Positions 1 to 28,452 of a stretch of DNA of 32,000 nucleotides are shown piece by piece. The notes below the pieces were generated by a model, which was not told where the DNA came from, ran no database searches, and was given only the letters and a program-made list of their open reading frames with translations. Position 1 is the first letter of the stretch. Each line of letters starts with the position of its first letter. Both the position numbers and the translations under genes were made by a program. Source of the DNA: Opitutales bacterium. GTDB lineage: Bacteria > Verrucomicrobiota > Verrucomicrobiia > Opitutales > Coraliomargaritaceae. The stretch is from the NCBI GenBank assembly GCA_049606355.1, contig JBMYVL010000009.1:1-32000 (forward strand), in the 5' to 3' direction.

Positions 1-779
1 GGCGCTAAGTTCTGATCGAGGTCCATGTGCTCGAGGTGGGCGCGCAGGTGGGTCTTATTGGTCGGGCGGTAGCTCAGCTCCACCGTGCCACCAGTTTTGT
101 TTGAGTATTCGTAAAGCTGGTCCAGGTCGCGCGACATATCCATGCCCATGAAGCGCACCGCCAAATCGTCGTTCACTACGTAGTTGGCGTCAAATTCACC
201 GCGCACATGGTTTTTGTTGCCAACGGTCCCTTTGATGCGAGTGAAGTCTTTATTGTGCTGCGCCATTTTCGGGACGCTGTTGATCAGACCGCCGGGATCT
301 GCCTGGCCATACATCAGGCTGTTCGCCCCTTTGACGATGTCGGCACGCTGAATATTGTAGCCGTCGCGCTCGAGTTCGCGCCAGAAGAGGTCATAGCGCT
401 GGGTCAGGCTGCGGAAGCCGCGAATGCGCAGGCGGTTTTCGGAGAAGCCATCGGGATCGCGGGATACACTGGCGGTCACTTGGTCCAGATCCTGGTCGTT
501 GAGGATGTTGAGGTCCTCCATGAGTTGCTCATTCACCACCGTGAGGGTGATCGGCGTGTTTTTCACCAATTCATTGGTGCGGGTCGCCGAGATCGAATTG
601 GCCGAGTAGTAGCCTTTGTCGTCTGCGGTGCTGACCACAAAATCATCCAGCACATACACTTCTTCGCTGGTGGGCGCAGGGCTCTCGCTCGGGGGGGGCG
701 TTGTGAGTTCCTGGGCGCTTGCGCTAGTAATGCTAGCTAAGCCCAGCAGGCTGAGCAGGTAGGGTAGGGTTCGGTTCAT
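1..779 (-). CDS. TonB-dependent outer-membrane receptor, N-terminal part. The gene continues past the left edge of the window.
   Basis: This ORF is absent from the supplied track because it has no stop inside the window. Reverse-complement translation from the ATG at 779..777 gives MNRTLPYLLSLLGLASITSASAQE, a signal peptide. It continues ...DDFVVSTADDKGYYSANSISATRTNELVKNTPITLTVV...RIRGF...IVKGANSLMYGQADPGGLIN, which are plug-domain signatures. The frame stays open to position 1. The + strand ORF 207..740 is its antisense shadow. Confidence 0.8.
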   Translation of the reverse strand, partial: MNRTLPYLLSLLGLASITSASAQELTTPPPSESPAPTSEEVYVLDDFVVSTADDKGYYSANSISATRTNELVKNTPITLTVVNEQLMEDLNILNDQDLDQVTASVSRDPDGFSENRLRIRGFRSLTQRYDLFWRELERDGYNIQRADIVKGANSLMYGQADPGGLINSVPKMAQHNKDFTRIKGTVGNKNHVRGEFDANYVVNDDLAVRFMGMDMSRDLDQLYEYSNKTGGTVELSYRPTNKTHLRAHLEHMDLDQNLA

Positions 780-992
780 ATCTGGGATCTCGATTTCGGT
801 TAATGAGGTTTATTAAAACTTTTAAACTTTGAGGCGACGCTGCTGAGTTGACAAGAAATTAAACATTAAGTACTCATAATTGTCAGTGGGCGCAGTACCC
901 GTTGTTTGACCCCGCAATGCAAGCTTTATGTGTGCGGCGGCGCCGCTAAGCTGCGTTTGCACAAACTTTTTAAAATCAACCAATCGTTATCC

Positions 993-1769
993 ATGTATCC
1001 AAAATACCTCCTTCTTCTCTTGATCACAGCGCAACTCGGTGCGCAATCTGCCTTGTACGAGGCCTTTGACACCGGCGAGGCGACGCGTGCTGACTGGCTC
1101 ACCGAGTGGCACCGCATGCAAGGCGTGGTCTCCGTGGTTCCGCAGGGGCTGGCCCTGGAGGGCTTGCCGGATCGCGGCGGTGCGCTGCAGCTGAGCAAAA
1201 AGGGGGAGGCACTCGCGCAGCACGGGGCGAGCATTGCCGGTACTTACTTTGGTGCTTTTCGAGTACAGGCGTCGGATTTGACTGACAACACCGTGCTGGG
1301 ACTGATGCTCAGCCGTGCCGCCAAAGTGGACGGCTTAAATCCCAAGACAGCGGCCATCAGTTTTTTGGTAAAGGGGTGGCAGACCAATTATGGTGTGCTG
1401 TTGATCGGTGGCCGCCCGATCAAGGCGACCGCAGGTGAGCCGATCGTACCCGGCGAGACTTACCTCGTCGTTTATCAAGTTGATCACAGTTCGTCCGGTA
1501 AGGCGCAGCTGTGGATTTTGAATGAGGCGCAGGCGGGCCATCACGCAGCGCAGGGCATTACTGCGGCGGCATTGAATGCGGCAGCACTGTCGGCAGAGGC
1601 CAGCGGTGTGATGCAGCGCGTGAGCGGCAAGATACAGAAGAAAAATCGCGTCGCGGTGATTAAGGGCGATGTCGTCGCATGTGTGGCAAAATACTGCCCG
1701 CAAGCAACGTTTGATGAAATCCGTATTTCGTCGGTCAGCCTGCAGGATGCAGTGGTCGCCGCTCAATAA
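993..1769 (+). CDS. Secreted hypothetical protein, possibly a concanavalin/LamG-like jelly-roll.
   Basis: The tracked ORF is 906..1769. The internal ATG at 993 gives MYPKYLLLLLITAQLGAQS, a canonical signal peptide. The mature protein begins LYEAFD and ends FDEIRISS, the same first-strand and last-strand pattern as the lectin-like modules at 4136 and 10162. It lies 23 nt upstream of the sulfatase gene and is probably co-transcribed with it. Confidence 0.6.
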   Translation: MYPKYLLLLLITAQLGAQSALYEAFDTGEATRADWLTEWHRMQGVVSVVPQGLALEGLPDRGGALQLSKKGEALAQHGASIAGTYFGAFRVQASDLTDNTVLGLMLSRAAKVDGLNPKTAAISFLVKGWQTNYGVLLIGGRPIKATAGEPIVPGETYLVVYQVDHSSSGKAQLWILNEAQAGHHAAQGITAAALNAAALSAEASGVMQRVSGKIQKKNRVAVIKGDVVACVAKYCPQATFDEIRISSVSLQDAVVAAQ

Positions 1770-1792: not shown

Positions 1793-3877
1793 ATGAACAC
1801 ACACCAATCCATCTCGTTTCTTCAGCGTCTACGCAATCACCTGAGCTGTAAGCCGATGCTGTGCGCAGTGGCTGCGCTGCTAGGCCTTGCGACTGTGACG
1901 ATCGCAGCGCAGCGCAGTGATGCCCAGCGCCCCGACATCGTCTTTATTTTATTGGATGATCTGCGCTGGGATGCGCTCAGTTTTATGGATCACCCCTATG
2001 TCGAGACGCCACATATCGACCGCCTGCGCGCGCAGGGTGCGATGATGCAAAATGCGTTTGTGACGACATCGATCTGCTGCCCCTCGCGCGCAACCTTTCT
2101 AACGGGTACGCTGGCCAACCAGCACGGGGTGATCGACAACGAGACCTCGGAGTATAATCCCACGGTTACGCCGCCGCTCACCAAGTACCTGCAGGAAGCC
2201 GGTTACCGCACGGCAATGATCGGCAAGTGGCACATGGGTAAGTCCGGTGCGCCGCGCCCGTACTTCGATTATTGGCTGAGCTTTAAAGGGCAGGGCGTTT
2301 ACAATGATCCGCTTTTCAACATTAACGGCGAAAAAATAAAACACAGTGGTTATACCACGGATTTGCTGACCGACTATGCGATCGATTTTATCGAGCAGCA
2401 GCCCTTGGATCAGCCTTACTTCTGTATGCTTTCCCACAAGGCGGTGCATGAACCCTTTCAACCGGCTCCACGCCACACCGATGCGTTTGGCGCGGCTACA
2501 GTGACGCCGGAACCGGCCAGTTGGTCCGAGGATTTTGCCGACAAGCCGGACTGGCACAAGCGCCAGCGCAGTCGTGATGTCCGCTGGCACTACCGTACCC
2601 GTGAGTATGAGACGGAGCAATTGCCTGACTCAGTGCCCCTCCAGCCATGGAAGTGGAACAACAAATATGTGAAGCAGTTGCGCTGCCTCGCCGCAGTCGA
2701 TGATGGAGTCGGCAAGGTGGTCGAAGCCTTGCGCCGGCGTGGTACGCTGGACAACACGCTCATCGTCTTCACCAGTGATAATGGCTATTTCCATCTGGAA
2801 CACCGCCGCTGGGATAAGCGCCTTGCGTACGAGGAGAGTTTGCGCATCCCGATGGTGGTCGTGTACCCCGGCCATATCGAAGCCGGCGCGTCGATCCCTC
2901 AGTTGATTACCAATGCTGACTTTGCCCCGACGGTTCTCGACTATGCCGGTGTGGCGATTCCGGAGCGCATGCAGGGCAGTAGTATGAAGCCGCTCTTCGA
3001 AGCGTCCGACCCGGAGTGGCGCGACTGCGTCTTCTATGAATATTGGAAGGAGTTGGTGCATGCCATCCCGGCGATGACCGCGGTCCGCACCGATCGCTAT
3101 AAGCTGATTAGCTTCCCTGAAATCGACGATATCGATGAGCTCTACGATCTGGAAAAGGATCCGCATGAAATGAATAATTTGGTGCTCGATCCCGCCCACG
3201 CAGACTTGTATCGCAGCATGCAGCAGCGCATGGCTGAGGAACGGGTGGCGAATCAGTGGCAGCAAAGAGTCTTTCCGAAAAATTTGCCCCGTGTGCGTGG
3301 TGTGGAAGGAGTTTTGCTGGATCTGGCGGTACAGGGCGATGCTGTGGTGGATCGCGCGGAGTCGGGGCTCGCTTTCAATGCTGAAGCGATCGACCTCCAG
3401 GATGATTGCCTGACGTTTGACGGTAAGCAGTCGGCAGTACGCGTTCCATTCCGTCCGCGGATCGATCCGGCCGCTTGGCCGTTTCAAATTGATGTGGAGC
3501 TCAAGCCGGAAGCCGACGGTGTGATTGCAGTACAGTCGACCCCGGGCTATGGCTATAAGCTGTTTGTGCAGGACGGTCGCCCGGGTGTCGCGGTTCATTG
3601 CAAAACTTGGATCGATACCACGACGGTCATTGATGCCCCGGATTCGATTTTGGGAAAGTGGACGCGCTTACAAGTGTCGATCGATTACAACCACTTGCAG
3701 TTGAAGGTAGATGGCAAAGTCGTCGAACAAGTCTCCTTGCCGCTGCCGTTCAAAGGATCGCCGAAGACGCCTCTTGTGCTCGGTAACAAAGGGCGTCATC
3801 CGGTCGCGAAGGGGATTCCCGATCATGCATTGGCAGGGTCGATTCGCTACTATCGTTTGACGCGGGGTAATCCTTAG
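1793..3877 (+). CDS. Cys-type sulfatase (S1 family) with a C-terminal LamG/concanavalin-like domain.
   Basis: - Sulfatase signatures are DIVFILLDDLRWD, SICCPSRATFLTG (the C-x-P-x-R formylglycine motif, Cys codon 2075..2077), IGKWHMG, and FTSDNGYFHLEHRRWDKRLAYEESLRIPMVV.
- The C-terminal ~170 aa (about 3370..3874) reads FDGKQSAVRVP...GKWTRLQVSIDYNHLQLKVDGK...GSIRYYRL, which is LamG-like.
- An alternative start at 1856 (MLCAVAALLGL...) is possible. Confidence 0.9.
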   Translation: MNTHQSISFLQRLRNHLSCKPMLCAVAALLGLATVTIAAQRSDAQRPDIVFILLDDLRWDALSFMDHPYVETPHIDRLRAQGAMMQNAFVTTSICCPSRATFLTGTLANQHGVIDNETSEYNPTVTPPLTKYLQEAGYRTAMIGKWHMGKSGAPRPYFDYWLSFKGQGVYNDPLFNINGEKIKHSGYTTDLLTDYAIDFIEQQPLDQPYFCMLSHKAVHEPFQPAPRHTDAFGAATVTPEPASWSEDFADKPDWHKRQRSRDVRWHYRTREYETEQLPDSVPLQPWKWNNKYVKQLRCLAAVDDGVGKVVEALRRRGTLDNTLIVFTSDNGYFHLEHRRWDKRLAYEESLRIPMVVVYPGHIEAGASIPQLITNADFAPTVLDYAGVAIPERMQGSSMKPLFEASDPEWRDCVFYEYWKELVHAIPAMTAVRTDRYKLISFPEIDDIDELYDLEKDPHEMNNLVLDPAHADLYRSMQQRMAEERVANQWQQRVFPKNLPRVRGVEGVLLDLAVQGDAVVDRAESGLAFNAEAIDLQDDCLTFDGKQSAVRVPFRPRIDPAAWPFQIDVELKPEADGVIAVQSTPGYGYKLFVQDGRPGVAVHCKTWIDTTTVIDAPDSILGKWTRLQVSIDYNHLQLKVDGKVVEQVSLPLPFKGSPKTPLVLGNKGRHPVAKGIPDHALAGSIRYYRLTRGNP

Positions 3878-3916
3878 GGTGCCTGCCGCTGCGTCGTTCT
3901 TTTTTAATTCATCCGT

Positions 3917-3945
3917 GCGACCGTTGCCGATTCGGCAACGGTCGC
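3917..3945. terminator. Perfect 13-bp stem / 3-nt loop hairpin downstream of the sulfatase gene. It may be a U-tract-less terminator or an RNA-stability element.
   Basis: The sequence is gcgaccgttgccg-att-cggcaacggtcgc. No T-tract follows it on either strand, though a T-run (3897..3905) precedes it on the + strand. Confidence 0.3.
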
Positions 3946-3973
3946 GATGGCCTTCGCCCGCCAAACGTCCCAT

Positions 3974-4003
3974 CGCAGTCACGCGACGGGGCGCAGTCAC
4001 GCG
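3974..4003. repeat. Direct 12-nt repeat cgcagtcacgcg, two copies 18 nt apart, upstream of the giant sulfatase gene. It is a candidate operator.
   Basis: The copies are at 3974..3985 and 3992..4003. The second copy runs into the perfect palindrome cacgcgtg. The repeat lies about 45 to 75 nt upstream of the ATG at 4049. Confidence 0.2.
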
Positions 4004-4048
4004 TGCAAAGTGCTTTGTTGGTAACCCGCCTACTACTTAAAAGCTAAA

Positions 4049-7000
4049 ATGATGCTCCAGCCCTTCTCCTTCTGCGTTGCGCTCGCCGCGCTGGCCGCCC
4101 TTGTTGTCGGGCGCCCAACGGCTTCGGCACAGGCAGTTCTCTTCAGCGATAATTTTGATTCCATCGTCAGCGCCGGATCTGACTATATCAGCGGCGCGGG
4201 AGAGTACTCCTACGGCTACGATTCTACGCCGAGTGGTTCTGCCACCAAGGCGATCAACTACGATCAATGGGCGCGCCAGGGGCAAAATTCGATCGCAAGC
4301 GATATCGATGGCGATGGTGATCGTGAGTTGCGACCCAATAAGGACGGGGCAAATAACGCCAAGCTGTGGGGTATTATTCTAAACCCCAGCCATTTCGCTG
4401 GCTATGGCGGGCAAACTTTAACCATCCGTATGGACTTGATTGGTGCGGATCCCGGGAATACGCGCATCTTTCTTGCCGCGGCCAACGGTTACGATGCCTC
4501 CGGTTCAAACACGCTCTTCATGGATGTAACCCAAGGTGGGTTCGGGACGTACACTTCAGCCTCAGGTACGGGGAGTACCACTGTAACTCAGCTGTTCGAA
4601 TATCAGATTCCGGATGAAACCGTTGGTGGATCCTGGAGCCGGGAGTTCACTTATACCGAAGGCGATGCCCTGATTTTGACCTTTGGTTCCTATAACTCAT
4701 CCTATGCCTTCGACAATTTGAGTATTAGCGACGCATCTGCGCCGCCACCACCGCCACCGCCACCGCCGCCGCCTGTTGATTTTGATCCGAATCCGGACGG
4801 TGGAGTGGAACCCGCGCCGCTACCGAGCCTGGATCCCGCACCGAATGTGGTGATCTTTATCGCCGACGATATGGGCATTGGCGACACCAGCGCGTACCAG
4901 GACTTGACGGGTAATGCCGATAGTGTGCAGATCGATACGCCCGAAATGGAGCGTCTGGCAAATCTGGGCACTCGTTTCACGGATGCCCACACCAATGGCG
5001 CGACCTGCAGCCCGACCCGGATCAGTCTGCTCTCGGGTACGTATTCCTTTCGCTCGCCTCTGAAGACGGCGGCAGTTCAGGACACGAACCACACGCACGG
5101 TGTGATCCTTCCGGGGCGCCGCACCACGATCGCTCATATGCTGCAGCGCGCCGGCTACCGTACCTATGGCTACGGCAAGTGGCACATGGCCCTCCGTGGT
5201 GATGCGGGGGCGGATACCAATAGCGATGGGATCCTGGATCAGACGGGCACGGGCATTGTTTACGAAGGTCCGATCGAGAGCGGCTTCGATACCTACACCG
5301 GTACGCCGGGTAACTTTAGCTACGCGGGCGCGATGCTGCAGGATAAGCAATACGTGCGATTCGGGAGTGCGGCTCCGAATGATTATTCGCTGGTGCCGAT
5401 CAACGATCCGAGTGCGCAGCCCTGGCTTGGCCAAGGGCCCAATCAGCCGACCGATCCGAATCTGTACAAGGTCCAGCCGGCCGTCTTTGAGAAGCTCCAA
5501 TCCGATCTCGCAAACCACATGGATTCGCAGGCTGACGAGCCCTTCTTTATCTATTATGCCTCACATTCGAATCACGACCCCTGGGTGCCGGCCAATTACG
5601 AGCCCGACCACCCCGACGGCCCGCGTGCCTCGCTCAATGACACCATCATCGATACGAATGTGACCAAGGCGGGCGGCATGATCGAGATTGCCACGGTTCC
5701 CGACAGCTCGGGGGATGGTATCCCCGATCCCGACTATTCGCTTTACGATGGCAACGGGACCTCTTGGATCTGGAACGATGCCCTGCGTGTTAAGATGTGG
5801 GATCATGTGACGGAGGTCGATGCGCAGGGGAACATCACTGTCAACGGCCCGACCAACCGCGCGATGATGGTGCAGGAAAATGATGTGATCGTGGGCTACC
5901 TGCTCGATTTCCTGGAGCAGACCGACGACCCGCGCAATCCGGGCCACAAGCTCATCGACAATACGATCTTTATCTTCACTTCGGACAACGGCGCGGATGC
6001 CAAGAGCGAAGCCGCTGTCGGTGCCTTGCCACAGAGTAGTGATGGCGTCATTACCGACCTGACTGGCTTTAAGGGCAGTCGCTGGGAGGGCGGTAGCCGG
6101 GTGCCGTTCATCGCGGCCTGGCCAAATCCGGCCGATGCCAATCAAGCCAGCGGTATTCCGGCCGGCGCCACCTCGTCGGCCATCTTTGGTCTCAATGATG
6201 TGTACGCCACGCTTGCCGAGGCGATCGGTCACCGACTGCATCCCGAGGAAGCGGTGGACAGTGAGTCTCTCCTGCCGGCCTGGACTGCTGGGCAGGGTGG
6301 TACGGTGCGTTCCACGGATCTGCTATCCAAGTTCCAGCAACGCATCTTTTCCCGACGCGGTGAGTTCAAGCTGGCGGCCCTCGATTCTGACTTTCCGGGC
6401 AGTTTAACGGTCGAGCAGGCCAGGCAGGACCGCTTCGCCGACAACAATGAGCTCGATTTCGATGACATGGTCATCGATACCGGGCAGTGGGCTCAGTATG
6501 TCCGCAAATTCGTCGACCTCTCGAATGACCTTAGCGAGTTGAACGATCTGGGTGCCACATCGATGGCCAATGACATGTTGGCGTCGCTGCAGACCCTGAC
6601 GACGCAAGGCTACAGCCGTGAGGGTGCGTCTGACTTTGAGAATGGGCTCAATTTTGAAGGGGGTGACTTGCAGACCGCTTCCAACTGGCACGCCTACAAG
6701 TCTTCCCGAAACGATCAACTGCCCAGCGGTGAAACCCCCGGCATTCTTGCCGAGGATGGCAGTGCCAGCGGCGACCTGAACGCGCTGACATTGGTGCACC
6801 GCGCGGGGACGCTGAGCTACAATCCGGGCACCAGTGGAGGCTTGAGCAATAGTCATTACGAACTCGATGGTGGCAGGCTGAATGTGAGCGACGACCTGCG
6901 CCTGAGCAACGCGCGCATGGAGCTCTACCGCGGCCAAGTCAACTTGGGCTTTAACGAACTCCAACTCACGGGCAGTAACGCGGTGGTGATTCTCTCAGGT

Positions 7001-9634
7001 GCAGACCTGACCGCTGCCCGGCTCTCGGTCGCGGAGGCCGCCGGCGCTACAGAAGGCTTCAAAATCATCCGTATTAAGGGGGAGGCAGGCACCCTGGAAC
7101 TCACCGGATATGATCCGATCGGATTTGCGGACGATGGTAGCGCAAGCAACGATTATATCGATTTCGTGACCGGAGCGCACGGCCGCTTGGTTACCACTCA
7201 AAGTGCCGCTTACTTTTCGGCGCTATGGGATAGTGGCCAACTGCGGATCGATGGCGCAGCCGGTGCTCCGGGTGCGTTCGACAGTTCCCCATTTCAGTTC
7301 ATTGCACTGGGGGATGGTCGCTACGCCCTCGAACTCGAGAGTGGTATAACGCCACCGCCCACGCCGAAGGAGCACATCACCTCCGGCCCGAACTTCATTA
7401 TCATCGTGCCCGATGACCACCGCTGGGATGCCACTAGCTTTTTGCAAAACCGCATCGTTTCCGACTTCGGTCGGATTCAGCGCTATCCCTATCTGACCGG
7501 CCCGGATCGCACGCCAAACATGGATCGCCTCGCCACCGAAGGGTTGTATTTTGACAACGGCTTTGTGACGTATTCGCTGTGCTCGCCATCGCGCGCCACC
7601 ATGCTGACCGGGGTCCAACCCTTTGTGCATGGCATCACTGCCAACGCGGACGAGTTTGATGTGAATGACGATACCTATGCCAAGCGGATGCAGGCCGCCG
7701 GTTGGTCGACCGGTTATTTCGGTAAATGGCACATGGGTAAGCAGACGGAGCGTCCCGGTTTTGACCACGTGCGTACCTTCTATGGGCAGGGCTCGTATTA
7801 TGAGGCGTCTTTTTACGACGAAGACAGCAATCTGGTACAAACCACAGGAGCCCGTAACACCAGTGGCGGGTCCGATGAGGACAACTGGGTGGACAAGGTG
7901 TCGACGGATTATCTGCTCAATTACCTCAATGCCTGCTACGCGGCAGATGAGCGTTTTCTGGCCTTCCTCGGCTTTAAGACGCCGCACGACCCGCGGGTGT
8001 CCGATGGTGTCAGTAATGCCCCGGTTGCCTCGAGCTCCGCCGCGAATTTCCGTGGGCTGTTTAGCGGCGTCACGCAGGTGGATGTGCCCAATTCGCTAAG
8101 CCAAAACGGCGATGCGCCCGTATGGAAGCCCAATACGAATCAGGGCCACGGCGGCAGCAACACGGAAGCCTACATGGAGCTGATTGCGGGGATCGACCAT
8201 CAGGTCGGTCGCGTCCTCGACAAACTGGATGCGCTTGGCATCGCCGAGAATACCGTCGTCATCTACATTTCTGACAATGGCTATTTTCGAGGCGAGCACG
8301 GGCTGGGGGACAAGCGCGCCGGCTATGAGGAAAGCCTCCGCGTGCCGTTTATGATTCGCTACCCGGCCATTCAGCCGGCAGGTGCCGGCCTGCTGCCGAC
8401 GGCGAAGATTGGCCTCAATTTGGACATTGCGCCGACGATTCTGGATATCGCCGGTCTCCCCGTCCCGCAACACATGCAGGGGCGCAGCCTGAAACCTTTA
8501 CTCGAAGGCACGGTGCCGAGCGATTGGCGCGAGTCCTTTGTCTTTAGTTACGTCGACGATCCGGAGTATGCGGCGACGGACCCTGCCGATATGGTGGGTA
8601 TTCGTACTGAGTCGGGCTATAAATTGATTCGCTATGCGGAGGACTCGGGCTGGGATGAGCTCTTCGATGTGCGTGCCGCCGCGCCGAACGATGCGAAGTA
8701 CGAAAACAACAACTACATCGCCGATTCCACTTACGCCGCCACCTTGGCGGACTTACAGCGAGACTTGGAGCTCGGCTTGCGTGCCAGTGGCCTCATGGAT
8801 ACGGTAGCGACGCGTACCAGCCGCCTGCCTTTTGAGACCGATTTCATCGCAGGCGACCGCTACCCCTTCCTGGTCGAGAAGTCCGCGGATCTCCAGAATT
8901 GGCAGACGACCGCCGCATTTGAGGGCAGTGGCGAAGTCGCGACCCTCGATCTCTCGGGTGGGGCGCCAGCCGCCTGGGACATCAGCGTGATCGGTGCGGC
9001 AGCCGACTACGCCATTCGCTACAATCCGCTGACCGAGACCACCGATGCGCTCGCGTCGGGCGAGGCGGTCCTCCAGTTCGGCGGCAAAGTCGAGACCGAT
9101 CGAAATGATGGCTATGATGCGGTGCTGGTCTTCGAACTGCCGGTACTCCCCGCCAATACTGTTCTCACCGCCGCGCAGTTGGAGATCTACGCGAGTCGAC
9201 AATGGGCACTGTACGATGCCGACCTCTGGGCGATCGGCATCCAGGCGGATACGACGCCACTCCTTGAGTATCACGAACACGAACCCTTTGCCGGTAATGT
9301 GAAGCTTCAGGACCGCTTGATGGATCATGGACTCGCTGCCGTGCCGACGTATACCACGGTGACCTCGAGCTTGGCCAATGGCCTGGCTCCCTATCTCCGC
9401 GAGTTCTATCAGGCCAACCCCGGTTACAGTGGGGGCCACTATCTTTTCCTGCGGATCAACAGCGATATTAACGTACGCGATCTGGCGCTGGAAGGAAATG
9501 ATGGTCGTAACTTCCGCGTGAGCTCGGCGAACAGCGCTTCAAACAAGCCCGTGCTGCACCTCTCGCACACGCCACCGTCTGCAGGGGAGCAGGAGTTCTA
9601 TCGCATCCGCTACGGCCTACCGACAGCACCCTGA
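4049..9634 (+). CDS. Giant secreted multidomain protein (1861 aa). Domain order is signal peptide, lectin-like module, Pro11 linker, sulfatase domain 1, unknown spacer, sulfatase domain 2, unknown C-terminal domain.
   Basis: - The signal peptide is MMLQPFSFCVALAALAALVVGRPTASAQA.
- The module at 4136..4732 is paralogous to the gene at 10090.
- An 11-Pro run occupies 4742..4774.
- Sulfatase 1 spans about 4841..6620. Its signatures are NVVIFIADDMGIGD, TCSPTRISLLSG (Cys codon 5006..5008), YGKWHMA, FIFTSDNGAD, and KGSRWEGGSRVPFIAAWP.
- Sulfatase 2 spans about 7388..8800. Its signatures are NFIIIVPDDHRWD, LCSPSRATMLTG (Cys codon 7580..7582), FGKWHMG, and YISDNGYFRGEHGLGDKRAGYEESLRVPFMI. Confidence 0.9.
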   Translation: MMLQPFSFCVALAALAALVVGRPTASAQAVLFSDNFDSIVSAGSDYISGAGEYSYGYDSTPSGSATKAINYDQWARQGQNSIASDIDGDGDRELRPNKDGANNAKLWGIILNPSHFAGYGGQTLTIRMDLIGADPGNTRIFLAAANGYDASGSNTLFMDVTQGGFGTYTSASGTGSTTVTQLFEYQIPDETVGGSWSREFTYTEGDALILTFGSYNSSYAFDNLSISDASAPPPPPPPPPPPVDFDPNPDGGVEPAPLPSLDPAPNVVIFIADDMGIGDTSAYQDLTGNADSVQIDTPEMERLANLGTRFTDAHTNGATCSPTRISLLSGTYSFRSPLKTAAVQDTNHTHGVILPGRRTTIAHMLQRAGYRTYGYGKWHMALRGDAGADTNSDGILDQTGTGIVYEGPIESGFDTYTGTPGNFSYAGAMLQDKQYVRFGSAAPNDYSLVPINDPSAQPWLGQGPNQPTDPNLYKVQPAVFEKLQSDLANHMDSQADEPFFIYYASHSNHDPWVPANYEPDHPDGPRASLNDTIIDTNVTKAGGMIEIATVPDSSGDGIPDPDYSLYDGNGTSWIWNDALRVKMWDHVTEVDAQGNITVNGPTNRAMMVQENDVIVGYLLDFLEQTDDPRNPGHKLIDNTIFIFTSDNGADAKSEAAVGALPQSSDGVITDLTGFKGSRWEGGSRVPFIAAWPNPADANQASGIPAGATSSAIFGLNDVYATLAEAIGHRLHPEEAVDSESLLPAWTAGQGGTVRSTDLLSKFQQRIFSRRGEFKLAALDSDFPGSLTVEQARQDRFADNNELDFDDMVIDTGQWAQYVRKFVDLSNDLSELNDLGATSMANDMLASLQTLTTQGYSREGASDFENGLNFEGGDLQTASNWHAYKSSRNDQLPSGETPGILAEDGSASGDLNALTLVHRAGTLSYNPGTSGGLSNSHYELDGGRLNVSDDLRLSNARMELYRGQVNLGFNELQLTGSNAVVILSGADLTAARLSVAEAAGATEGFKIIRIKGEAGTLELTGYDPIGFADDGSASNDYIDFVTGAHGRLVTTQSAAYFSALWDSGQLRIDGAAGAPGAFDSSPFQFIALGDGRYALELESGITPPPTPKEHITSGPNFIIIVPDDHRWDATSFLQNRIVSDFGRIQRYPYLTGPDRTPNMDRLATEGLYFDNGFVTYSLCSPSRATMLTGVQPFVHGITANADEFDVNDDTYAKRMQAAGWSTGYFGKWHMGKQTERPGFDHVRTFYGQGSYYEASFYDEDSNLVQTTGARNTSGGSDEDNWVDKVSTDYLLNYLNACYAADERFLAFLGFKTPHDPRVSDGVSNAPVASSSAANFRGLFSGVTQVDVPNSLSQNGDAPVWKPNTNQGHGGSNTEAYMELIAGIDHQVGRVLDKLDALGIAENTVVIYISDNGYFRGEHGLGDKRAGYEESLRVPFMIRYPAIQPAGAGLLPTAKIGLNLDIAPTILDIAGLPVPQHMQGRSLKPLLEGTVPSDWRESFVFSYVDDPEYAATDPADMVGIRTESGYKLIRYAEDSGWDELFDVRAAAPNDAKYENNNYIADSTYAATLADLQRDLELGLRASGLMDTVATRTSRLPFETDFIAGDRYPFLVEKSADLQNWQTTAAFEGSGEVATLDLSGGAPAAWDISVIGAAADYAIRYNPLTETTDALASGEAVLQFGGKVETDRNDGYDAVLVFELPVLPANTVLTAAQLEIYASRQWALYDADLWAIGIQADTTPLLEYHEHEPFAGNVKLQDRLMDHGLAAVPTYTTVTSSLANGLAPYLREFYQANPGYSGGHYLFLRINSDINVRDLALEGNDGRNFRVSSANSASNKPVLHLSHTPPSAGEQEFYRIRYGLPTAP
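4742..4774 (+). repeat. (CCN)11 low-complexity tract encoding 11 consecutive prolines, forming an interdomain linker.
   Basis: The tract ccg cca cca ccg cca ccg cca ccg ccg ccg cct is in frame with the CDS starting at 4049. The antisense ORF 4702..4995 reads it as poly-Gly and is an artefact. Confidence 0.95.
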
Positions 9635-9993
9635 TGGAGACACCATCGCATCTGCGGTCGCGGTCTCCTCTGCCAGCGGCGCTTGCGGGTGGGCTGCCCT
9701 GCCGCGCATCAACGGATGCGAGAGTGGGTGGGTCCCGCTGGGGCTCTGCTTTGCGCCCGAGTGTTTAGGATGGGCGCCCCGCTACGGCCTGCGACAAGCG
9801 CTTCGGTAGTCGTGTCGCCGCGTCGCAATGGGACGCTCGCTGGCAAAGAAGTGGAGACGAGCAGAAGAGAGGCGATAAGATGAATGTTTTATAGAAAAAA
9901 AGGTTACTTTTCGCTCAGCCAGCCCCATATTTATGAATTAAGTACTTGTTGGACAATGCCTTAATAAATTTTACGCAGTTTAAACTTTTTGGG

Positions 9994-10022
9994 TTGACTG
10001 AATTTATGACTTTTAGTTAATT
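9994..10022 (+). promoter_or_regulatory. Candidate promoter for the PEP-CTERM gene, inside a ~200-bp AT-rich stretch.
   Basis: TTGACT sits at 9994..9999, and TTAATT follows 17 nt downstream at 10017..10022. It is preceded by the AT-rich tttaaacttttt at 9979..9990. The -10 element is weak, so the call is tentative. Confidence 0.25.
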
Positions 10023-10089
10023 TTGTGGTTAATCCTAAATCCGTATTTCATAATACGTCTTTTATTAACCTACCCTCATTGATTACCCT

Positions 10090-10860
10090 ATGAAAAAACT
10101 AACCACCTCAGTCGCCTTAGTGGGCGCATTGTTTGTGACTTCGAGTGCATCGGCACAGACAGTTCTCTTCAGTGATGATTTTGACCCTACGTTTAGCGCC
10201 GGAGCTGAGTTCCTCAGCGGTGCTGGGCAGTATTCATTCGGCTACGACTCAACGCCATCCGGTGGCGCGACTAAAGCGATCAACAACTACGATCAATGGA
10301 TGCGCCAAGGTGCCAATTCCATCGCAAGTGACCTTGATTCGGATGGTGACTTGGAGCTGCGCCCCAATAAGGATACTGCTAACAACGGCAAAATGTGGAG
10401 TGTGATTCTCGACCCAGTTCACTTTGTGGGTCAGGGTGGTAACACACTTACCCTCAGTGTTGATTTGATCGGTGCTGACGACGGTGCGGCCCGTGTGTAC
10501 CTTTCGTCAGCTAGTGGTTATGACGCCACTGGTTCGAACGACTTGCTTGTAAAAGCTTCGCATGGTGGCTTAGCTACATCGAATGCATCCGGCACCGGCA
10601 GCACGGTTGTAACTGAGATCTTCGATGACGCTAATAATGGAGGCGGTATTGCAATTGCAGACACAACCGTCAGCGGAAGCTTTACGCAAGATTTCACCTA
10701 CACGGAAGGCGATGCACTGATCGTATCGTTCGGTGCGTACAACAGTGCGATTGGTTTTGATAATCTGTCTATTTCTGCTGTTCCAGAGCCGTCTTCATAC
10801 GCGCTGCTGGCAGGTGCCCTGGCGTTGACTTCGGTCATGCTGCGCCGCCGTCACGTATAA
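10090..10860 (+). CDS. PEP-CTERM-anchored surface protein with a lectin-like module, paralogous to the N-terminus of the giant sulfatase.
   Basis: - The signal peptide is MKKLTTSVALVGALFVTSSASAQ.
- The body (10162..10779) aligns by eye along its length with residues 30-228 of the protein starting at 4049.
- The C-terminus VPEPSSYALLAGALALTSVMLRRRHV (10780..10857) has the PEP motif, a hydrophobic helix and an Arg cluster. That is the PEP-CTERM exosortase sorting signal. Confidence 0.85.
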   Translation: MKKLTTSVALVGALFVTSSASAQTVLFSDDFDPTFSAGAEFLSGAGQYSFGYDSTPSGGATKAINNYDQWMRQGANSIASDLDSDGDLELRPNKDTANNGKMWSVILDPVHFVGQGGNTLTLSVDLIGADDGAARVYLSSASGYDATGSNDLLVKASHGGLATSNASGTGSTVVTEIFDDANNGGGIAIADTTVSGSFTQDFTYTEGDALIVSFGAYNSAIGFDNLSISAVPEPSSYALLAGALALTSVMLRRRHV

Positions 10861-10900
10861 GCTACTGGCTGAATTTTAAGGGATATGGGGATATTCCCTA

Positions 10901-10932
10901 AGAGGCGGACTTCGGTCCGCCTCTTTTTTTTT
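10901..10932 (+). terminator. Rho-independent terminator of the PEP-CTERM gene.
   Basis: The structure is gaggcggac-ttcg-gtccgcctc, a 9-bp GC-rich stem with a tetraloop, followed by nine T at 10924..10932. Confidence 0.85.
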
Positions 10933-10973
10933 AGCGTTTTCAAGTACTGGGTCGCGTGTGTAGCCTGGGGCAC

Positions 10974-11582
10974 ATGCAATGGATCATCGCCACGGGTAAC
11001 GTACACAAGGTCGAAGAGTTTGAAAGCTTACTGCACGGGCTCCCCGTTGAGTTACACTCAGCCGAGGTCTGTGGTGGTATGCCGCCGGTTGTAGAGGACG
11101 GCACAAGCTTTGTGGCCAATGCCCACAAAAAAGCCGCTGCGCTGCAGCGCGTGGCACCGCCGGGAGCTTGGATCCTGGCAGATGACTCGGGCTTGGAAGT
11201 CGATGCGCTGGAAGGGGCGCCGGGGGTGTATTCAGCGCGCTATGCGGGGCCGCAGGCGAGTGATGCGCAGAACGTCGCCAAGTTGCTCGACGCACTCCAG
11301 GAAGTCCCTGTGGCAGAGCGCGGCGCGCGCTTCCGCTGTGTGCTCTGTTTGATCGACCCGGATGGCTGGGTTACCCATTATGCGGGTGCCTGCGAAGGGC
11401 AGATCGCCAAGGGCAGCAGTGGCGCTGCCGGCTTTGGCTATGATCCGGTCTTTATACCGGCTGGTTATCGGCAGAGCTTTGCCGAGCTGGGGGATGTCGT
11501 GAAAAGCCAGCTCAGCCACCGCGCGCAGGCAGTTGCAGCCATGCGCGCAGTGCTTGAAGGTTCGGAGCTTGCAGACGCTTAG
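10974..11582 (+). CDS. rdgB: dITP/XTP pyrophosphatase (non-canonical purine NTP pyrophosphatase, RdgB/HAM1 family).
   Basis: Signatures are [64 protein letters not shown] and SFAEL...SHRAQA. The tracked ORF starts at GTG 10956, but the ATG at 10974 gives the canonical N-terminus. Confidence 0.85.
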
Positions 11583-13630
11583 GTCGGCTCCACCCACTTG
11601 CCGTGCGCCTGAATCAGCTCGATGAGGCGATCGAGTGCTTCGTTGGCGGGTACATTGTAGGCAACGCAGTCCTTGCCGACATAGAGATTGATCTTGCCCG
11701 GTGCGCCACCGACATAACCGAAATCAGCATCTGCCATTTCGCCGGGGCCATTGACGATGCAACCCATGATCGCAATGGTCACGCCTTTCAGGTGGTCGGT
11801 GCGGGCACGGATGGTTTGGGTCACGCTTTGTAGGTCAAAGAGCGTGCGGCCGCAGCTGGGGCAGGCGACGAATTCGGTTTTGGAGATACGTGCCCGGGCG
11901 CCCTGGAGGATGTTGTAGGCGAGGCTCGTGCCCTTATCGAGGCGTGGCTCCGTTTCGATACTAATCGCATCGCCGATGCCGTCGCAGAGCAGGGCACCGC
12001 TCAAGATGCTGGCTTCGATCAGGCGGTCGCTGAAAAAATCACGTGGAGCGAGCGTATTGGCGGCAGTGTTGCGCAGCCAGATCGGTACATCCGGCAAGTA
12101 GCTTTGGCTCACTGCGTGCAGTGCGCGATAATGCCCTACGGCATGGCTGTCGTCGTCGGGGCGCCGGCAACACAAGACTAAGCCTGCTGTGCCCATCGGC
12201 TGTAGTTGCGCGCCGACGGCTTCGCGCAGGGCTTGAGCGCTGCAGTCGAGGGCCAGATTGAAGCCATGTTCGCGGCAAAAGTGCAGGAGCTGGGCAGCGT
12301 AGTACGCGTCTTCCGCGGCGACCGTCTGTAATAGGGTAATGCCAGCCATGCCGTCCGGCCAGGTGTAGCGCTCCAGGTCGCTGAGGTCGATGGCCGCGCC
12401 GAGCTCTAAAATAAAGCATTGTACGACACTGTGCAGGGCCTCGTGCAGCCCGCTAAAGGCCTGCAGATCGTCCGTGTGATCGATGGCGACTTGTAAGCCT
12501 TCCAGGCGGCTCTCTTTGAGTTGAGTCTGGGTCTGGCATACCGCTTGAATGATGCCGGCCGCATCGCTCAGCGGCTCGGCCGCTTTGACGATCACTGCGG
12601 GTGCTGCGTCTCCGCCGATACGGCATTGCGGCCCAAGCTCCAGCACACGCGCCTGCCGGCGCTTGAATTGGTAGGGGTCGATCGAATCCTTGCTTTCGGG
12701 GTAGGGTGCCGGGCGCTGTTGCCACAGGGCCATTGCCTTATCCGCTAAATCGCGGGCTACCGGAATCTCGTAAATTGGGTCTTCGGTGAGTGAAACGCGC
12801 AGGGTGTCGCCGAGGCCATCGTTGAGCAGCGAGCCAATTCCGATGGCACTTTTGACACGGGCGTCTTCGCCATCCCCGGCTTCGGTCACGCCGAGGTGAA
12901 GCGGGTAGTGCATGTCCTCTTGTTGCATGCGGGCGACTGCCAAGCGATAGGCCTCAATCATTACCTTCGGATTGCTGGCTTTCATCGAGAGGCAAAGATT
13001 GCGGTAGCCGTGACTCTCTGCGATGCGAATAAACTCCAGCGCGCTCTCCACCATGCCGAGGGGCGTATCGCCGTAGCGATTCATGATGCGATCGGAGAGT
13101 GAACCGTGGTTCGTGCCAATGCGCATCGCGCGACCCAGTTCCTTACAGCGGCAAATGATCGGCGAGACCGATTCGTAGAGGCGCTCCAGTTCCTCGTTGT
13201 ATGCGGCATCGCTGTATTCCTGAACGGCGAATTTCTTTTTATCGGCGTAATTGCCGGGGTTGATACGCACCTTGTCAACATGCTTGGCAGCTTCCATCGC
13301 CGCAGCAGGCAGAAAGTGAATATCTGCCACGAGCGGTACCTCGCACTTCGCCGCGCGTACTTCCTTGGCAATCGCGCCCAGTGCGGCTGCGGCTTTTTTA
13401 TTCGGTGCCGTGATCCGCACAATCTCACAGCCGGCCTCGGCGAGAGCCAGCGTCTGCCGCACGGTTGCCGCGATATCCTGTGTGTTGGTGGTCGTCATCG
13501 ACTGCACCCGCAGGGGGTGGTGGCCGCCAATCCCGACACCGCCGACGGTGACGACCGAGCTGAGGCGGCGGACTGCCTGAAAGCGTGATGCACAATAATC
13601 GACTGCGGTGGCGGATGGGGTGCTCATCAT
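11579..13630 (-). CDS. ispG: 4-hydroxy-3-methylbut-2-enyl diphosphate synthase, long form with an inserted A*-type domain.
   Basis: - The TIM-barrel domain shows [22 protein letters not shown] and RINPGN...GTNHGSL.
- The Fe-S domain shows [14 protein letters not shown] and [22 protein letters not shown].
- About 275 aa (roughly residues 296-570, nt 11921..12745) lie between positions that are contiguous in the 372-aa E. coli enzyme. Confidence 0.95.
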
Positions 13631-13651
13631 CTCAATACGTATGGGCTTGGG

Positions 13652-15094
13652 CTAAGGCGTAAGCCCTGCGTCGTCAGCTGGCTCAGCGGGAGTCTCAACG
13701 GGTGCCTCATCTTTGATCAAACCGGCACTCCGCCCAACTCGACCGATGTCGAAGAAACTCACATAGGCGACAAAAGCCAGTAGCAGGAGCACAAAAGCAA
13801 ACTGTACGCGCTCCATCAGCTTGCGCGGTAGGGGGCGTCCGATGAGTTTGGCGATGGTCGCAAACAGCATGTGGCCGCCATCGAGCACCGGGATCGGTAA
13901 GAGATTAAACAGCGCCAAGTTGACGTTGATCAGCGCCAGGAACCAAATCAGGTCGACCCAGCCGTAGCGAGCCATCGTACTCAAGCCATGCACGATGCCA
14001 ACCGGGCCGCTCATATTACGCACTTTAACATCCGAATCTCGGTGGATCAGCGCGTACAGGGTCTGGCGCATGGTATTGGCAAATTGCAGCATTTGTTCGG
14101 CAGGATTGTAATGCACGCGCTCGGTCTTGAAGGGATAGTCGTAAGCGAAGCCGAAGCGTGGCAATTGTTCGCCCGCTTTGATGCGTGGCTGCACCGGTAT
14201 GACGATGGTGTCGCCGTCACGCTCGACGGTAATCGCAATGCTGCGATCGCCGTGGTTGGCTAAATAAGTGCTTAAGAAACCGCTTGAGATCACGCGCTCA
14301 CCGTCGAGCTCCAGGATGCGATCGCCGGTTTGCAGGCCGGCTGCCAAGCCGGGCATATCGGACTCCAAGTATACGATCATCGGGGCGGCATTGCGATCCG
14401 AGATCGGATATATGCCAAGGTGACGAATGCCTTCGGTGGAGACTGTTTCGGGATAAGCCGTGAGCGTCAGGCTTGCTCCATCGCGTAGAATGCCGAGTTC
14501 GACAACGGCCCGGCCATCCTGTGTGCGACCGGTACTGGTCATCAATGCATTTTGGTACTGCATCCAATTGCCGATGGCTTGCCCATCGACACTGAGGATC
14601 GTATCGCCTTTTTGAATACCGGCGGCTTGTGCGGGACCGACAACGGTCTGTTTGTCGGTATTGATAACCGTCTCGGCGATATAGCCGACTTCGGTAGTTT
14701 TGATGATTTCTCGACCGACACCCCATAACAGCAGCGAGAGAATGAAGGCGAGGATCAGGTTGCACACCGCACCCATCAGCGCGACGATCATTTTATCGGC
14801 ATACGAAATGGGCGGTAGTGTGGCACTGTCAGTGTCTTCGGCGCCCTCGAGTCGGCCCATGTCAGCAAGTTGCGGCAGAGAGACATAACCGCCGAGTGGT
14901 AGCAGTGAGACGCGAAAGTCAGTGCCGTACTTGTGCCAGCCAAACAAGCGGGGACCAAAACCGATGGAAAAGCGATCGGCGATGAGGCCGCGTTTCTTCG
15001 CGGCTAAGAAATGGCCGAGCTCGTGAATGAAAATGGAGAAGCCCAGGCAAAACAGGGCAATTGCGATAAACCAAAGATTTGTCAGGAGGGACAT
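13652..15094 (-). CDS. rseP: RIP site-2 zinc metalloprotease with PDZ domains.
   Basis: It carries the HELGHFLAAK HExxH motif in the first transmembrane segment, central PDZ-like segments, a C-terminal NLLPIPVLDGGH motif, and the conserved position after dxr. Confidence 0.9.
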   Translation of the reverse strand: MSLLTNLWFIAIALFCLGFSIFIHELGHFLAAKKRGLIADRFSIGFGPRLFGWHKYGTDFRVSLLPLGGYVSLPQLADMGRLEGAEDTDSATLPPISYADKMIVALMGAVCNLILAFILSLLLWGVGREIIKTTEVGYIAETVINTDKQTVVGPAQAAGIQKGDTILSVDGQAIGNWMQYQNALMTSTGRTQDGRAVVELGILRDGASLTLTAYPETVSTEGIRHLGIYPISDRNAAPMIVYLESDMPGLAAGLQTGDRILELDGERVISSGFLSTYLANHGDRSIAITVERDGDTIVIPVQPRIKAGEQLPRFGFAYDYPFKTERVHYNPAEQMLQFANTMRQTLYALIHRDSDVKVRNMSGPVGIVHGLSTMARYGWVDLIWFLALINVNLALFNLLPIPVLDGGHMLFATIAKLIGRPLPRKLMERVQFAFVLLLLAFVAYVSFFDIGRVGRSAGLIKDEAPVETPAEPADDAGLTP

Positions 15095-15105
15095 CGTTGA
15101 GAGTA

Positions 15106-21794: not shown

Positions 21795-23204
<1,410 letters not shown>

Positions 23205-28378: not shown

Positions 28379-28452
<74 letters not shown>

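Follow-up and report, generated by a model that had tools for sequence, protein, structure and literature searches.

A previously unclassified, predicted jelly-roll module shared by a double sulfatase and a PEP-CTERM protein in marine Verrucomicrobiota

Two module copies in a sulfatase gene cluster

A 32,000-nucleotide stretch of DNA from an Opitutales bacterium (Verrucomicrobiota; Coraliomargaritaceae), covering positions 1 to 32,000 of contig JBMYVL010000009.1 in GenBank assembly GCA_049606355.1 and called the window below, carries a sulfatase gene cluster in which a module of about 200 residues occurs twice. Copy A lies at the N-terminus of a giant protein with two sulfatase domains, and copy B is the passenger of a small protein with a PEP-CTERM sorting signal. 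The window begins with a TonB-dependent receptor gene, from which the cluster is transcribed divergently. The cluster comprises the genes for a 287-residue protein, a sulfatase with a Laminin-G-like (LamG-like) domain, the giant sulfatase and the PEP-CTERM protein; beyond a terminator lie housekeeping genes (RdgB, IspG, RseP, Dxr and others). Judged by its sequence and a structure model, copy A is a previously unclassified secreted accessory domain, predicted to be a β-jelly roll, that is shuffled between proteins.

Table 1. Features of the sulfatase cluster and of the two module-carrying genes, in window coordinates (aa, amino acids; HMM, hidden Markov model; MAG, metagenome-assembled genome; ORF, open reading frame).
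Feature	Coordinates	Strand	Basis or remark
TonB-dependent receptor gene, 5' part, with Plug domain	1..779	-	Pfam Plug PF07715, E=1e-8; cut by the left window edge
First gene of the cluster, secreted 287-aa protein	906..1769	+	No Pfam match
S1 sulfatase with C-terminal Laminin-G-like domain, 694 aa	1793..3877	+	Pfam Sulfatase and SGSH_C; Laminin_G_3 sub-threshold
Giant ORF, 1861 aa, NCBI MGB0793202.1	4049..9634	+	Opitutales bacterium MAG
Signal peptide of the giant ORF, MMLQPFSFCVALAALAALVVGRPTASA then Q	4049..4129	+	Read directly; cleavage site inferred from the AxA rule
Module copy A, ~199-aa predicted beta-jelly roll	4136..4732	+	HMM E=2e-74; AlphaFold; Foldseek
Acidic DxDxDG-type loop of copy A, DIDGDGDRE	4301..4327	+	Motif reading; between two predicted strands
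Pro11 run inside the linker joining module A to sulfatase domain 1	4742..4774	+	Sequence
Sulfatase domain 1	4841..6229	+	PF00884 E=3e-34 (scanned alone)
Sulfatase domain 2 with SGSH_C	7388..8770	+	Pfam; PDB sequence matches
PEP-CTERM gene, 256 aa, NCBI MGB0793203.1: signal peptide, module B, PEP-CTERM tail	10090..10860	+	Pfam/TIGRFAM
Module copy B, polymorphic cassette	10162..10779	+	BLASTP against copy A; strain comparison
Acidic DxDxDG-type loop of copy B, DLDSDGDLE	10330..10356	+	Motif reading
PEP-CTERM sorting signal: VPEP motif, hydrophobic helix, RRRHV	10780..10857	+	PF07589, TIGR02595
Intrinsic-terminator-like hairpin, strong, closing the cluster	10900..10935	+	11-bp stem, 7 G-C pairs, T-run

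The two copies align end to end by BLASTP with 129/206 identities (63%), 79% positives and E=5e-92. A first-pass annotation made from the letters alone had proposed this similarity by eye, quoting segments that do translate as given and estimating about 70% identity at the start with less in the middle; the measured identities are 77% over residues 1–70 of copy A, 54% over residues 71–140 and 66% over residues 141–198. Its readings of a signal peptide ending in ASAQ before each copy and of a DxDxDG-type loop within each also hold on the translations. The end of copy A and the start of copy B are 5430 nt apart. When the six-frame translation of the window was searched with an HMM built from 33 family members, solely copies A and B were found. 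The module had not been recognised by eye as a named family, and neither copy has a match in Pfam or NCBIfam.

The giant protein consists, in order, of a signal peptide, module A, a Pro-rich linker, sulfatase domain 1, a middle region, a TPPPTPKE linker, sulfatase domain 2 and a C-terminal region, so that the Pro11 run does, as had been proposed, join the module to two sulfatase domains. These carry the formylglycine motifs CSPTR (residue 320, 5006–5020) and CSPSR (residue 1178, 7580–7594), respectively. Scanned as a whole, the protein matches PF00884 with E=2e-76, the top-scoring stretch lying in domain 2. With PF00884 and a C/S-x-P-x-R motif in each, both catalytic domains classify by sequence as S1 formylglycine-dependent sulfatases. 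The best PDB sequence matches are 9bas, 9bau and 6s20 for domain 1, which is nearest to S1_15-type enzymes, and 5g2v (6e-59) and 7p24 for domain 2, which is nearest to S1_11-type 6-O-sulfatases; the closest solved relatives of both are carbohydrate sulfatases. The middle region (6230–7345, ~370 aa) and the C-terminal region (8771–9631, 287 aa) show no significant family match, the sole hint being Sial-lect-inser at E=0.027.

Comparison with other assemblies indicates that the giant ORF is genuine and not an assembly artefact, because three further loci are collinear with the window and six full-length proteins come from independent assemblies (loci compared with the window are given L-labels here, and proteins P-labels). 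A long-read assembly with frameshifts (L007) is 97.9% identical and collinear over 20.3 kb; L008 (98.5% identity) crosses the junction into the second sulfatase domain; and in L013 (98.4% identity) the module is in frame with sulfatase domain 1. The cluster of the giant protein has 26 members; the six full-length copies in its 90% cluster measure 1860–1861 aa, one of them lying on an 880-kb contig.

Downstream, the product of the PEP-CTERM gene is annotated at NCBI merely as a PEP-CTERM sorting domain-containing protein. Its tail (residues 231–256, VPEPSSYALLAGALALTSVMLRRRHV) directly follows copy B, as first read, and scores above the cut-offs for both PF07589 (22.3 bits against 20.7) and TIGR02595 (20 bits against 16), making the protein a PEP-CTERM member. 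The passenger falls below the cut-offs of the named PEP-CTERM passenger subfamilies NF038120 (33 of 80 bits), NF038129 (29.5 of 65), NF038126 (23.6 of 50) and NF033554 (16.9 of 80). A scan of a part of the window ORFs turned up no exosortase (EpsH/Xrt) family. The 455-bp gap between the giant sulfatase and PEP-CTERM genes contains no sigma-70-like promoter match.

Family, predicted fold and architectures

Carriers of the module family appear to be limited to a few marine Verrucomicrobiota that are Opitutales/Coraliomargaritaceae-like. A query with the module returned 14 matches among 5.8 billion proteins, and a profile search 37 cluster representatives at E<=1e-3 among 1.84 billion proteins. 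The species representatives of GTDB include one carrier, a Coraliomargaritaceae MAG, and a metagenome scan added 13 further module loci, including a TARA Oceans scaffold. Neither a sequence search nor a profile search of the PDB gave a match, and a literature search on PEP-CTERM with sulfatase, fucoidan, Coraliomargarita or polysaccharide utilization locus found nothing on the module.

An AlphaFold model built on a 33-sequence alignment is all-β with ~15 strands and is predicted at high confidence (predicted local distance difference test, pLDDT, 94.5; predicted template modelling score, pTM, 0.91); a 10-sequence alignment had given a pLDDT of 68. When this model was compared to the PDB with Foldseek, all matches were jelly-roll ligand-binding domains, mostly sugar-binding: the sugar-binding domain of Fbs1, the carbohydrate-binding modules (CBMs) CBM22, CBM16, CBM6, CBM4 and CBM61, MAM, the Eph ligand-binding domain and the Ca2+-binding receptor-binding domain of CDTb/Ib toxins. 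The DxDxDG loop, which conforms to the sequence motif, sits between predicted strands 53–55 and 64–66. In a close subfamily of 12 sequences D56, D62 and E64 never vary, and conservation of D58 and D60 is 90% or higher. Of the 40 residues that are invariant in this subfamily, 24 lie outside strands or helix, and many of these are Asp, Asn or Gly, including those of the loop. Across the whole family F7, F171 and D193 alone are invariant, with W45, F87, D100, Y173 and N194 nearly so.

The majority form among family members is a signal peptide followed by the module and a PEP-CTERM tail, and several other architectures recur. Tandem arrays of 2–6 modules are combined with TSP3 repeats and a ~70-aa C-terminal domain ending in FFR/FYR (P0015, P0016, P0020, P0041; L009, L019). 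The module also precedes a C-terminal "WGGF...PWVWSY" domain (P0029, P0035, P0039, L001 13188–14150), and it is attached at either terminus to a ~750-aa region that looks like an enzyme (P0038, P0030). In P0082, a B-type module is joined to TSP3 repeats, the C-terminal domain and an FGE-sulfatase domain (PF03781, E=9e-50). The catalytic partner of the window occurs bare in P0051, which is 78% identical and has no module, and the orthologue of the giant sulfatase in L005, 65% identical from just past the linker, has an unrelated 228-aa N-domain instead. Such substitution of N-domains on one catalytic domain is typical accessory-domain shuffling.

Several of these partners are of interest in their own right. 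The N-domain of L005 (6023–6706) has no Pfam match and is 42% identical to residues 447–778 of P0041 and 34% identical to residues 209–566 of P0023; it forms a second accessory family, which both replaces the module and co-occurs with it (P0041, P0023). Sulfatase domain 2 and the C-terminal region of the giant ORF are missing from the same L005 orthologue. The ~750-aa region, 57% identical between residues 251–1017 of P0038 and residues 1–797 of P0030, also occurs in L019 (8826–11801) and in the N-terminal parts of P0018 and L010 (9476–10411). It has no Pfam or PDB sequence match and may be an undescribed family of glycan-active enzymes. The gene of P0082 (L031 565–2655) lies outside the window, in the same or a closely related organism. 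Its product carries a signal peptide, and its module shares ~90% or more protein identity with copy B of the window; a secreted protein with an FGE domain (SUMF1-like) that shares a module with a sulfatase is unusual. Finally, many secreted proteins of these bacteria finish with a recurring C-terminal element of ~70 aa that ends in (K/E)FFR(V/L/F) or FYRI and has no Pfam match. L004 3–230 and the C-termini of P0015, P0016 and P0040 are linked by BLAST, and in P0082 the element is internal. The terminal motif alone is recognizable by eye in L005 6023–9685, P0018, P0023, P0041 and the end of the giant ORF (~9540–9631; ...EFYRIRYGLPTAP). This element might be a sorting or attachment domain.

In at least three lineages, the PEP-CTERM form is the 3'-terminal gene of sulfatase clusters, and it frequently has a TonB-dependent receptor gene as its neighbour. 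In L005/L006 the cluster proteins are 62–65% identical to those of the window. In a further set of loci (L001/L002/L003/L015/L016/L012/L026) three sulfatases come before the module gene, and after it come a TonB receptor and a distant paralog of the module; in L010, L009 and L019 a sulfatase lies within 3–6 kb of the module gene. The fused copy was seen solely in the species-level cluster of the window; L005 and L001/L026 have the anchored gene, and their sulfatases carry another N-terminal domain or none. Set against these loci, the proposal of the first-pass annotation splits: the anchored gene and sulfatase genes are co-conserved, because the arrangement recurs across lineages, whereas the pairing of an enzyme-fused with an anchored copy is found in one species-level lineage. 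None of the locus annotations includes a SusD-family match, so that the SusC/SusD pair typical of Bacteroidota was not found. In L010, the locus of the Coraliomargaritaceae MAG, a frameshift splits the module gene at ~10411, and its neighbour (7794–9404, reverse strand) encodes 536 aa with a bacterial TSP3 repeat and a collagen-like (GPA)n triple-helix repeat.

To rationalize the predicted fold, the enzyme fusions and the genomic contexts together, we favour a reading in which the module is a glycan-binding unit, of the CBM or surface-glycan-binding type, that serves targeting when fused and surface binding when anchored; we put its probability at roughly 0.5. The module would be non-catalytic and CBM-like, and its binding might be Ca2+-assisted via the DxDxDG loop. 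In its anchored PEP-CTERM/exosortase form it would act as a surface glycan binder that feeds the neighbouring TonB receptor and sulfatases, functionally analogous to the surface glycan-binding proteins (SGBPs) of Bacteroidota. In its fused form it would keep the sulfatases on a sulfated polysaccharide.

Several observations weigh against this reading. The Foldseek matches are distant, with E ~1e-4, query-normalised template modelling (TM) scores of 0.35–0.49, target-normalised TM scores of at most 0.64 and 8–16% identity, and for this reason the lectin-like label of the first-pass annotation is upheld solely at the level of fold class, the jelly roll. By Pfam HMM score, copies A and B match no CBM family and no family member exceeds a threshold; among the 33 members, the sub-threshold matches are one to CBM_6 (E=0.016) and that of P0041 to CBM_4_9 (E=2e-4, 22.1 bits against a cut-off of 25.9). 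The DxDxDG loop is kept in the close subfamily and not in distant members. The module is also strongly acidic (pI ~4.05, with 24–26 Asp and Glu against 7–9 Lys and Arg), which is not the chemistry expected for binding sulfated or other anionic glycans unless a cation bridges the contact. Searches by junction, by module and by profile found no other module–sulfatase fusion, and the same searches missed the window's own giant-protein cluster; the uniqueness of the fusion is weakly supported because that cluster of 26 members escaped them. Lastly, the genomes are probably sulfatase-rich, as in related Verrucomicrobiota, and some of the sulfatase adjacency could therefore be chance.

The same architectures also lend themselves to a different explanation, in which the module attaches or docks its carriers to the cell envelope or matrix by binding the bacterium's own exopolysaccharide or coat, or by binding itself, with the PEP-CTERM form serving as coat or receptor. 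Like an anchoring module, it occurs in fusion with several catalytic domains that are unrelated to one another; where it forms tandem arrays with TSP3 repeats of the Ca2+ type, these resemble proteins of adhesins or of a matrix; and its acidic, Gly/Ser/Thr/Asn-rich composition is typical of coat proteins. Exopolysaccharide and exosortase systems are, moreover, what PEP-CTERM proteins are classically associated with (Haft 2006, as cited in PMC4960237). Against docking, most lineages with the anchored gene have no fused copy, and the neighbours in fold bind ligands and are not known to dock in pairs. Together with the replacement of the anchored copy described below, this makes retention at the surface an unlikely explanation, though one with some substance.

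Exchange of the module core between strains

The anchored gene proved to be polymorphic. L011 and L014 represent the same locus as window positions 9608–15973, and both flanks are 94–100% identical to it, but identity drops to 59–79% precisely over 10148–10775. The replacing core, which we call allele C (P0001), has 78–79% protein identity to copy A and 62–63% to copy B. The anchored partner is therefore dimorphic within the species, allele B being 63–65% and allele C 78–79% identical to copy A, and L013, with its sulfatase-fused copy A, and L014, with allele C, come from one common sample. Allele C was considered as a recent chimera of A and B and rejected, as its core has no more than ~75% DNA identity to A and the allele is found again on a 6.3-kb contig, where the flanking genes are 99% identical.

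A comparable replacement is seen in a second lineage. L028 (P0003) and L026 (P0036) share 98.9% identity from the upstream region to the end of the signal peptide and 96% in the tail, and the DNA of their cores is unalignable (34–65%); L026 retains the gene order of L001. From these strain comparisons we infer that the core of the module has been exchanged by recombination, with breakpoints at the module borders, in both lineages. The P0082 gene in L031 is 95.5% identical to the window over exactly 10168–10763 and unrelated on either side. This indicates that the module alone was recently transferred between the genes of the PEP-CTERM protein and the FGE fusion. L004 is a hybrid with an L031-type upstream part, a window-type downstream part and mosaic informative sites, and it ends with its contig 369 bp upstream; because it stops there it is ambiguous, and an assembly crossover through the 95%-identical repeat and a real recombinant are equally likely.

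These findings bear directly on docking. The enzyme has no fixed matching surface partner, because the anchored copy is dimorphic within the species. While the anchored copy has been replaced by versions of 30–79% identity, the fused copy has stayed ~96–97% identical, a pattern that fits poorly with a specific, co-evolved A:B interface. The earlier suggestion that the enzyme docks homotypically to the surface copy is accordingly disfavoured: the anchored partner varies between strains, and in most lineages the fused copy is missing.

By neighbour joining, copy A pairs with allele C, and the two then join the orthologous PEP-CTERM genes of another lineage; copy B and B', the module paralog of the FGE-fusion protein P0082, sit on a long separate branch. 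The simplest history would have three steps. A C-like module would have been ancestral at the PEP-CTERM locus; it would then have been duplicated onto the upstream sulfatase, giving rise to copy A; and in some strains the anchored copy would later have been overwritten from the B' paralog.

Substitution rates indicate that the A–B and A–C splits are old and that the module is under purifying selection. Between A and B, synonymous divergence (dS) is saturated and nonsynonymous divergence (dN) is 0.28; dN/dS is 0.125 between A and C and 0.235 between B and C. At the same time, the module is, by these sequence comparisons, the fastest-evolving part of its carrier proteins. Between strains, dN of module A is 0.0144 against 0.0014 for the attached catalytic domain, and dN/dS of module B is 0.41–0.48 against 0.10 for IspG. 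In five other full-length giant proteins the module differs at 3.0–4.5% of its residues against 0.2–1.1% in the remaining 1634. The variable sites of module A fall in residues 69–137, mostly 88–137, a stretch that takes in the least similar third of the A–B alignment.

Given the age of the A/B split, the two copies might be no more than old local duplicates of a generic β-sandwich that serves as a spacer or as a folding or secretion aid, their proximity being a historical accident without functional coupling. The restriction of the fusion to one species-level lineage fits such a view, as does the structural look of the residues that are invariant or nearly so across the family (F7, F171, D193, N194, W45). 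We nevertheless regard it as quite unlikely. The module has been recruited repeatedly and independently, to two sulfatase domains, to a protein with an FGE-sulfatase domain and to sulfatase clusters in at least three lineages; the many invariant Asp, Asn and Gly residues in loops of the close subfamily suggest that these loops are functional; and purifying selection has been maintained.

The exchange pattern and the raised rates could also be those of a variable surface antigen or phage-receptor domain, under frequency-dependent selection from phages or grazers and swapped for escape rather than for substrate specificity, with the enzyme-fused copies as by-products or conversion donors. Flanks that are nearly identical around a dimorphic or unalignable core, as seen in two lineages, a paralog transfer limited to the module, and dN and dN/dS raised relative to neighbouring sequence are all what such a domain would display. 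Long-term dN/dS is, however, well below 1 in both the A/C and the B/C comparison, and the conserved linkage to sulfatases and a TonB receptor, together with the Pro-linker fusion to an enzyme, suggests substrate processing. The data contain no link to phages, and surface variation would in any case be compatible with glycan binding. As the principal role of the module we hold such escape to be very improbable.

Under the glycan-binding reading, cassette exchange would swap the binding specificity, or the exposed surface, between strains. A more far-reaching version would make the anchored jelly-roll proteins the counterpart of SGBPs and the specificity module a mobile cassette moving by gene conversion among anchored, sulfatase-fused and FGE-fused copies, by which strains re-target their desulfation machinery to different sulfated algal glycans; the family would then be a new CBM family that is specific for sulfated polysaccharides and possibly Ca2+-dependent. 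This full scenario is speculative, and we would not expect all of it to hold.

Parallels with known systems and further features of the cluster

What appears to be new here, by analogy, is a CBM-like family, so far unclassified, that has a PEP-CTERM-anchored form and exchanges its modules as cassettes; type-B CBMs and the SGBPs of Bacteroidota offer the best known parallels. With type-B jelly-roll CBMs (CBM4, CBM6, CBM16, CBM22, CBM61) the module shares the predicted fold class, attachment to one end of an enzyme through a Pro-rich linker, the formation of tandem repeats and a secreted location. Its F-x-D-x-F N-terminal and F-D-N-x-x-I C-terminal strands appear to resemble the strand pair that closes CBM jelly rolls. 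It is somewhat larger (198 aa against 145–160 aa), with ~40 extra N-terminal residues, and unlike these CBMs it lacks sequence membership, its similarity amounting to TM scores of 0.35–0.64 and 8–16% identity. It is joined to sulfatases and to an FGE-domain protein, not to any identified glycoside hydrolase, and binding is predicted here.

Like the SusE/F-like SGBPs of Bacteroidota, the anchored form is a small, secreted, non-catalytic protein beside a TonB receptor and degradative enzymes, and in both cases the binding-type domain occurs on enzymes too. A precedent for CBMs common to multimodular surface proteins and enzymes is described in a preprint (bioRxiv 10.1101/2023.09.07.556657). In contrast to those SGBPs, the proteins described here would be held by a PEP-CTERM/exosortase anchor rather than as lipoproteins, have no SusD partner and occur in Verrucomicrobiota; the module family is unrelated in sequence, and its function is deduced from context. 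Among PEP-CTERM/exosortase substrates (NF038120 QFxxD, NF038126 FxDxF, PepA NF033554), the signal peptide, the single small domain and the canonical tail are common ground, whereas the passenger of copy B lies far below every named subfamily cut-off tested. We know of no description, for the named PEP-CTERM subfamilies, of the same passenger on enzymes without a PEP-CTERM tail.

Cassette exchange in pilins and adhesins is the work of gene-conversion systems that vary surface proteins. The module resembles these in its variable core between conserved ends, in the cassette-limited transfer between paralogs and in the presence of several divergent donor-like copies. Unlike them, it comes with no dedicated recombinase, repeat signals or silent-cassette array that we could see, the exchange is deduced between strains rather than within one clone, and the alleles are old (dS >1).

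Verrucomicrobiota are major degraders of sulfated algal polysaccharides. To our knowledge they lack the toolkit of SusD and surface-binding proteins with which Bacteroidota capture their substrates, and descriptions of sulfatases with appended binding modules are rare. Three links tie the module to the biology of sulfatases: fusion to sulfatases, fusion to an FGE-domain protein and anchoring beside sulfatase/TonB clusters. This threefold link makes it a clonable candidate for the missing capture and targeting function and for a new CBM family. Cassette-like exchange with breakpoints at the module borders gives population genetics a way to follow how close marine strains diversify in substrate range or surface identity. 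Should binding prove negative, an ordinary lineage-specific surface domain would remain.

Other genes of the cluster have relatives at the loci compared. An orthologue of the TonB receptor, 948 aa long, is called at the equivalent place in L007 and L005. The LamG-like sulfatase is 71% identical to L001 5290–7329 and 62% identical to L005 3838–5916, and its type is conserved 5' of module genes in other lineages. For the first gene of the cluster, the ATG at 993 is the likely true start. Its product is 35% identical (E=6e-39) to residues 13–272 of the L001 sulfatase at 2942–5290 and 45% identical to the product of L005 3020–3817. Beginning with YEAFD and finishing with FDEIRIS, it represents a second unclassified domain, of jelly-roll or LamG-like appearance, which is free in the window, free in L005 (two copies, 2119–3817) and fused N-terminally to a sulfatase in L001.

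Three minor features complete the annotation. A 177-aa ORF at 207–740 on the forward strand lies wholly within the TonB-receptor gene on the opposite strand, has no family match and is probably spurious. Among the housekeeping genes, directly 5' of UvrB, a 469-aa ORF (21795–23204, forward strand) has no Pfam match. The sole Rfam match of the window is a tRNA gene at 28379–28449 on the forward strand (60.1 bits).

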